Shown: positions 42,333 through 42,788 of the stretch, one piece after another
How positions within the stretch are numbered: position 1 is the stretch's first letter
How the letters are laid out: the number at the start of each line of letters is the position of its first letter
Sequence record: OR769032.1
DNA from: Escherichia phage JoYop
Direction: 5' to 3' (one strand)
DNA length: 64,000 nt
Notes under the pieces: generated by a model
Seen by the model: the letters and a program-made list of their open reading frames with translations, nothing else
Database searches by the model: none
Told to the model about the DNA's origin: nothing
Position numbers and translations under genes: made by a program

Positions 42333-42788
42333 TTATTTTAAATCGTCTGCCCAATCAAGTTTAAGAGGCTCTTTGTATTCACGGTCAAGTACAACCGGAA
42401 TTTGTACATCACCGCTAAATGATAAGGGTCCAACATTATAAGACAATGTTATATGCGGTGTGTAATCATCAAAATCATGTGTAGCACCTAGCGCCCGCGC
42501 ATACATGTGTCGACAGCGCAGATATTCAGAATCTAGCACAAGTACAAGAGTCGATCCATCTTGTGTTTTCCATACTTCTAAATGTCCAGAAGAAGCTACT
42601 TCAAAACTTCCACTCGATGGAACATATGGAACATTTACTCTTGAATAACATATGGTCGAATGAATTTTTTCTCTAGGAACTGGATTAGGAACACGTAAAG
42701 AGCGCTGAAGTTCTTCCAGCGCATCAAGTGTTAATTCTGAAAACTTAGCTGCTACATAAAGACCCGTTGAAAAGTCTTTAAATTCCAT
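42333..42788 (-). CDS. 57B: gp57B / Acb1-type anti-CBASS 2H phosphoesterase
   Basis: 151 aa; two H-x-T/S motifs (HSTI near residue 44, HITL near residue 112) typical of 2H phosphoesterases; sits between ipI and 57A as in T4. Confidence 0.65.

Follow-up and report, generated by a model that had tools for sequence, protein, structure and literature searches.

A predicted anti-CBASS nuclease, Acb1, lies beside the internal head protein gene ip7 in Escherichia phage JoYop

We analysed a 64,000-nucleotide stretch of DNA from Escherichia phage JoYop (sequence record OR769032.1; called the window throughout), centring on a minus-strand open reading frame (ORF) of 456 nt, stop codon included, that begins with ATG, ends with TAA and corresponds to gene 57B (acb1) of phage T4 (Table 1). 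Read along the minus strand, the genes of this region are 4, 2, 3, 1, 57A, acb1, ip7, trna.4, trna.3, trna.2, an HNH endonuclease gene and nine tRNA genes, with 57A overlapping gene 1. The order 2, 3, 1, 57A, 57B, internal-protein (ip) locus, trna.4, trna.3, trna.2, tRNAs is common to the window, T4, RB32 and Bas37 (KarlGJung, MZ501089), and the position of acb1, between 57A, which it directly follows, and the internal-protein cassette locus, is the same in T4, RB32, RB15 and Bas37. The surrounding 4.3 kb is 95-97% identical at the nucleotide level to hundreds of Tequatrovirus genomes, and the colinear arrangement 57B-ip7-trna.4 is already represented in GenBank by vB_EcoM_G8, which aligns as a single piece at 96.6%.

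Table 1. Features at and around the predicted acb1 gene, in window coordinates
Feature	Position	Strand	Evidence and remarks
acb1 (T4 gene 57B), predicted CDS, 151 aa + stop	42333..42788	-	ORF list; match to T4 NP_049750 residues 2-152; Pfam PF23474; PDB 7T26
First catalytic motif, H43-S44-T45 (T4 numbering H44/T46)	42654..42662	-	codons CAT TCG ACC
Second catalytic motif, H112-I113-T114 (T4 numbering H113/T115)	42447..42455	-	codons CAT ATA ACA
Gene 57A, tail-fibre assembly chaperone	42788..43030	-	Pfam GP57 E 5.2e-51; PHROG tail fiber chaperone; TAA overlaps acb1 ATG
Gene 1, dNMP kinase, heads 1-57A-57B unit	43030..43746	-	Pfam DNMK E 1.3e-102; T4 and RB32 gene order
MotA-box-like middle-promoter match, AATGCTTCA-11 nt-TATAAT, upstream of gene 1	43769..43794	-	pattern scan; consensus match
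42-nt direct repeat copy 1, between acb1 stop and ip7	42280..42321	-	early-promoter-like GTTTACA...TGATACTAT in 13-bp hairpin, -14.8 kcal/mol
ip7, injected internal head protein, 102 aa, in the place of T4 ipI	41952..42260	-	N-terminal capsid-targeting MKTFKEFINE; PHROG internal head protein E 4e-41
42-nt direct repeat copy 2, between ip7 and trna.4	41901..41942	-	81% identical to copy 1
trna.4 homologue, 61 aa, far edge of ip cassette locus	41698..41883	-	T4/RB32 trna.4 position and length; PHROG 1692 E 6e-35
HNH endonuclease ORF, between tRNA cluster and trna.2	40307-40939	-	PHROG 14736 E 5e-124
Nine tRNA genes	39542-40300	-	Arg-TCT, Asn-GTT, Tyr-GTA, CAT-anticodon tRNA, Thr, Ser, Pro, Gly, Leu

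The far end of this gene series differs in detail among the phages compared. The HNH endonuclease ORF occupies a place where T4 has no gene, and it matches Bas37 bas37_0256, a "putative homing endonuclease" at the same position, at 99% apart from a three-residue deletion. The tRNA cluster of the window has Asn and Tyr tRNAs in addition to those of T4 and lacks the Gln tRNA; relative to Bas37, it lacks the His tRNA. ARAGORN assigns the CAT-anticodon tRNA to Met, and the tRNA in the matching place is annotated as tRNA-Ile in T4, RB32 and Bas37.

The sequence-only reading of the window had assigned the ORF to 57B/Acb1 on account of two H-x-(T/S) motifs, of the kind found in 2H phosphoesterases, and both motifs are present at exactly the coordinates given, as HST at residues 43-45 and HIT at residues 112-114. 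By itself, however, such a pair is weak, non-significant evidence: the composition of the protein leads to an expectation of 0.75 H-x-(T/S) motifs with a probability of about 0.17 for two or more, and 3 of the 52 window ORFs in the 100-250 aa size class carry at least two. With motif pairs this common, and with natural acb1 loss-of-function alleles described in relatives such as Bas43 (PMC13577387, PMC12657230), the ORF might be imagined to be a chance frame with two motifs or a decayed, inactive copy. Chance can be set aside on grounds of homology. The protein agrees with T4 57B (residues 2-152) at every one of its 151 positions (100% identity), it matches the Pfam family "Anti-CBASS protein Acb1" (PF23474) at 202.7 bits (E 2.6e-60; cut-off 27 bits), with residues 8-149 covering profile positions 1-144 of 144, and its best match among solved structures is Acb1 of Erwinia phage FBB1 (7T26 and 7T27; E 4.1e-62), with 68% identity over 141 residues and both motifs aligned. 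The frame is full length, and its nine nucleotide differences from the gene for the experimentally active T4 protein are synonymous, leaving no amino acid changed. These comparisons, with family and structure matches at E 1e-60 or lower, rule out a decayed or accidental ORF, and we give that explanation practically no credence.

Further comparisons point in the same direction. RB32 57B is also 100% identical to the window protein, and because the T4, RB32 and window proteins are identical, the nucleotide differences in acb1 (9 relative to T4, 12 relative to RB32) are all synonymous, with none non-synonymous, as expected when a functional gene is under purifying selection. Alignment with T4 Acb1 places H43, T45, H112 and T114 on H44, T46, H113 and T115, so the motifs coincide with the catalytic positions, and the two histidines are the residues mutated in the inactive T4 enzyme. 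In an alignment of seven sequences, consisting of the window protein and six homologues at 32-68% identity from phages of Erwinia, Escherichia (Krischvirus), Acinetobacter, Vibrio, Klebsiella (Slopekvirus) and Salicola, these four residues are all among the 13 invariant columns. A second, distant Acb1 structure, 9Q2G, also matches the window protein (E 0.004), and no NCBIfam model matched either Acb1 or Ip7. The 2H phosphoesterase fold and the C-terminal lid can be recognised by sequence comparison, through the match to 7T26/7T27 and through a C terminus identical to that of T4. The position of the gene, conserved in Tevenvirinae, is supportive of membership in the Acb1 family and not strictly defining. 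Taken as a whole, the comparisons leave us close to certain that the ORF codes for the Acb1 nuclease with which T4-type phages counter CBASS, as the sequence-only reading had proposed. That reading was also right in calling the gene a known one, since the protein is that of the published T4 Acb1.

Residue numbers in the window protein are one lower than those of T4 (43 and 112 against 44 and 113) because the T4 annotation begins one codon earlier. At the 57A/acb1 junction (42786-42794, minus strand), T4 reads GAATGATGG and the window and RB32 read GAATAATGG, such that the T4 start is ATGATGG and that of the window is ATAATGG. The annotated T4 57B, of 152 aa, starts at the first ATG, whereas in the window and RB32 the second ATG is the sole acb1 start because the first codon reads ATA. 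Given that the remaining 151 residues agree in full, translation of 57B in T4 may likewise begin at the second ATG. The overlap with the preceding gene differs accordingly in form: in T4 the 57A stop is TGA and overlaps the 57B start by 4 nt, whereas in the window it is TAA and the overlap is 1 nt. The resulting TAATG overlap of the 57A stop with the acb1 ATG probably serves translational coupling. T4 Acb1 (57B, NP_049750.1) and the window protein otherwise share the catalytic tetrad, the place directly after 57A and the 1-57A-57B context, and the two loci differ in the gene that follows, which is ipI in T4 and ip7 in the window.

The function of T4 57B has been established experimentally. Hobbs et al. 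2022 (PMC9117128) identified it as Acb1 by activity-guided fractionation and described a 2H phosphoesterase fold in which an HxT/HxT tetrad (H44, T46, H113, T115) sits on the scissile phosphate; the H44A/H113A double mutant served as the catalytically dead control. The enzyme keeps the CBASS effectors Cap5, Cap4 and CapV from being activated, and deletion of acb1 from T4 abolishes the cGAMP-degrading activity and lowers plating efficiency more than 300-fold on CBASS hosts (Hobbs et al. 2022). In a transposon-sequencing study (HIDEN-SEQ preprint), 57B was dispensable on K-12 and depleted, or conditionally required, on a CBASS host. The enzymology and CBASS phenotype ascribed here to the window protein are carried over from the identical T4 protein.

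A second possibility is suggested by database names: "RNA ligase" is the name that RefSeq uses for 57B of both T4 (in NC_000866) and RB32, and PHROG 755 bears it too. Acb1 belongs to the superfamily that includes LigT and the 2'-5' RNA ligases, with which it shares two HxT/S motifs, its reported fold and a metal-independent chemistry that passes through a 2',3'-cyclic phosphate (PMC9117128). The window product could on these grounds be an RNA-acting enzyme of the LigT type, either a 2'-5' RNA ligase or an RNA 2',3'-cyclic phosphodiesterase, for instance in tRNA repair, and only about 2 kb separate acb1 from the tRNA cluster. A relaxed-threshold Pfam search also returned 2_5_RNA_ligase2 (PF13563) at residues 80-122, near the second HxT motif. 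That match (E 0.11, 13 bits) falls short of the gathering threshold of 27 bits and is at noise level, compared with 202.7 bits for the Acb1 family, and a sub-threshold match of this sort is what would be expected of a divergent 2H superfamily member. The substrates also differ, being RNA ends for the ligases and a cyclic oligonucleotide immune signal for Acb1. Moreover, activity-guided fractionation for cGAMP degradation led to the identical T4 protein, and T4 deleted for it lost that activity and became sensitive to CBASS (Hobbs et al. 2022); we found no report of RNA-ligation activity in the Acb1 literature consulted. We therefore consider an RNA substrate highly improbable and retain Acb1 as the assignment.

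The mode of action predicted for the window Acb1 rests on experiments with the identical T4 protein and on the 68%-identical FBB1 structure. The enzyme would be a small protein of 2H phosphoesterase fold with a U-shaped pocket that takes up a cyclic di- or trinucleotide, over which the C-terminal lid would close. Acid-base catalysis by the two HxT motifs (H43/T45 and H112/T114), independent of metal, would promote attack of the adenosine 2'-OH on the adjacent 3'-5' phosphodiester, forming a 2',3'-cyclic phosphate intermediate that would then be opened to give a linear product such as GpAp. In this way 3'3'-cGAMP, cUA, cAAA and related signals would be destroyed before CBASS effectors are activated, and the infected cell would therefore avoid suicide and the phage would complete its cycle. 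The FBB1 enzyme, solved in its apo form (7T26) and with 3'3'-cGAMP (7T27), aligns with the window protein across the HxT motifs and the 2H core with a single one-residue gap, where FBB1 has one extra residue between the motifs; roughly a third of its residues differ, some of them in the C-terminal lid region. Acb1 shares with Apyc1, the Acb2 and Acb4 sponges, poxins and ring nucleases the strategy of depriving a signalling defence of its second messenger, but these proteins have unrelated folds and mechanisms, among them an MBL hydrolase and sequestering sponges. In contrast to the sponges, Acb1 hydrolyses its ligand, with specificity for 3'-5' bonds next to adenosine.

The region had been labelled early in the sequence-only reading, and for acb1 this label does not hold. 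The gene is the last in the 1-57A-57B unit, behind a MotA-box-like sequence that recurs unchanged in T4 and RB32. This site ahead of gene 1 probably serves acb1 as a MotA-dependent middle promoter, with expression in the middle/late period. Published T4 data agree with such timing: cGAMP-cleaving activity appears only from about 15 min, 57B shows "predominantly middle/late expression", and expression of acb1 is "later" than that of acb2 (PMC12657230). In a pattern scan, sites resembling early promoters (GTTTAC...TGATACTAT) occurred only downstream of acb1, ahead of ip7 and trna.4. All of these promoter assignments are consensus matches. They come from T4-specific motif patterns, which were of more use than a generic scan; the latter, near acb1, gave no excess of sigma-70 promoters (18 against a shuffled expectation of 19.7) or of terminators (2 against 2.4) and by itself is uninformative.

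The sequence-only reading placed the ORF between ipI and 57A. The upstream neighbour is indeed 57A, identified by its Pfam match, but the downstream gene is ip7, whose product is 97.1% identical to RB15 Ip7 (Z35082), 96.1% to RB32 Ip7 and 95.1% to T2 Ip7. We rejected its identification as ipI, as the product is 21% identical to T4 IpI with similarity confined to the N-terminal MKTFKEF. The site downstream of acb1 is a known polymorphic internal-protein cassette site: it holds ip5-ip9-ip7-ip8 in RB15, ip5-ip9-ip7 in RB32, ipI alone in T4 and ip7 alone in the window, and in Bas37 it holds an Ip5 homologue (bas37_0261) together with Bas37_0260. The Bas37 record notes bas37_0261 as "internal head protein ipI", yet its product aligns with RB32 Ip5 and not with T4 IpI.

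The notion that acb1 forms part of an anti-defence neighbourhood beside injected internal proteins survives in part. There is an injected-protein neighbour, Ip7, but it is not IpI, and IpI, acting against GmrSD, is the only experimentally grounded anti-defence neighbour in T4; it is absent from the window locus. The idea itself was published in 2022, when Hobbs et al. pointed out that T4 Acb1 adjoins ipI, an arrangement they took to be in keeping with anti-defence islands. Other internal proteins offer a guide to what Ip7 might do. Ip1, Ip2 and Ip3 inhibit GmrSD, each a different variant of it (PMC12373910), and Bas37_0260 inhibits McrBC (HIDEN-SEQ preprint), so that an anti-defence role may reasonably be expected of Ip7 from what its relatives do. 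We considered whether ip7 corresponds to the McrBC inhibitor Bas37_0260 and rejected this, the alignment being 25% identical and limited to the capsid-targeting N-terminus. In the literature consulted on internal proteins, we found no target for Ip7. Ip1, Ip2, Ip3 and Bas37_0260 are each inhibitors of type IV enzymes. We tentatively suggest, while thinking it somewhat less probable than its opposite, that Ip7 inhibits one specific type IV restriction enzyme resembling GmrSD or McrBC, that acb1 and ip7 form a minimal two-gene anti-defence islet, and that the cassette is swapped by recombination at the 42-nt repeats that flank ip7.

Each of these repeats has its early-promoter-like spacer and -10 element inside a hairpin of 12-13 bp. 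The same hairpin-promoter design is present at all 11 ip-cassette boundaries that we inspected, taken from the window, T4, RB32 and Bas37, and at 10 of these the stem is stable (7-13 bp, about -15 to -19.5 kcal/mol on approximately 60-75 nt); the exception is the boundary upstream of RB32 ip7, which folds weakly (-4.4 kcal/mol). The stems vary in sequence while the pairing is kept. Next to acb1, the hairpin (at about 42285-42310) lies about 25 nt past the stop codon and is not followed by a U-run. The 1-57A-acb1 transcript may have its 3' end at this hairpin, or cassettes may be exchanged there by recombination.

The consequences of carrying acb1 may also depend on the host. Beyond CBASS signals, Acb1 could deplete the decoy nucleotides of Panoptes systems (2'3'-c-di-AMP, cA3) and so turn into a liability, an extension of the Acb1 assignment and not a replacement for it. 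Expression of T4 Acb1 is sufficient for Panoptes toxicity, through degradation of the decoy nucleotides, and the H44A/H113A mutant has no such effect (PMC12657230). Type II Panoptes restricts the Tevenvirinae Bas35-37, in which acb1 is intact, and phages escape it through acb1 lesions, a nonsense mutation in Bas43 and mutations in Bas35 escapers (PMC13577387). The window protein is identical to the T4 Acb1 that triggers this response. On the other hand, the liability depends on the host carrying Panoptes, and knock-down of T4 Acb1 had a smaller effect than knock-down of Acb2 (PMC12657230). On balance, we lean towards a host-dependent net effect, which may also include a blunting of cA3 signalling by type III CRISPR systems.

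As for acb1 itself, nothing about it is novel, because its protein is that of T4; it is a known and common gene, ordinary for a T4-like phage. Our tblastn search found Acb1 homologues in 1,470 of 50,697 phage records, 498 of them at least 99% identical and 388 at 80-90%. They are mostly annotated "hypothetical protein" or "RNA ligase", and only occasionally "anti-CBASS protein Acb1"; the first two names, found in many database entries, are misleading. The practical value of recognising acb1 accordingly lies in annotation and host-range prediction. An Acb1 identical to that of T4 predicts that the phage should resist CBASS systems whose signals are adenosine-containing 3'-5' cyclic di- or trinucleotides and should not resist those whose signal is cGG or 3'2'-cGAMP. 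By the same token, an intact acb1 predicts susceptibility of the phage to those Panoptes guard systems that detect the loss of decoy cyclic nucleotides.
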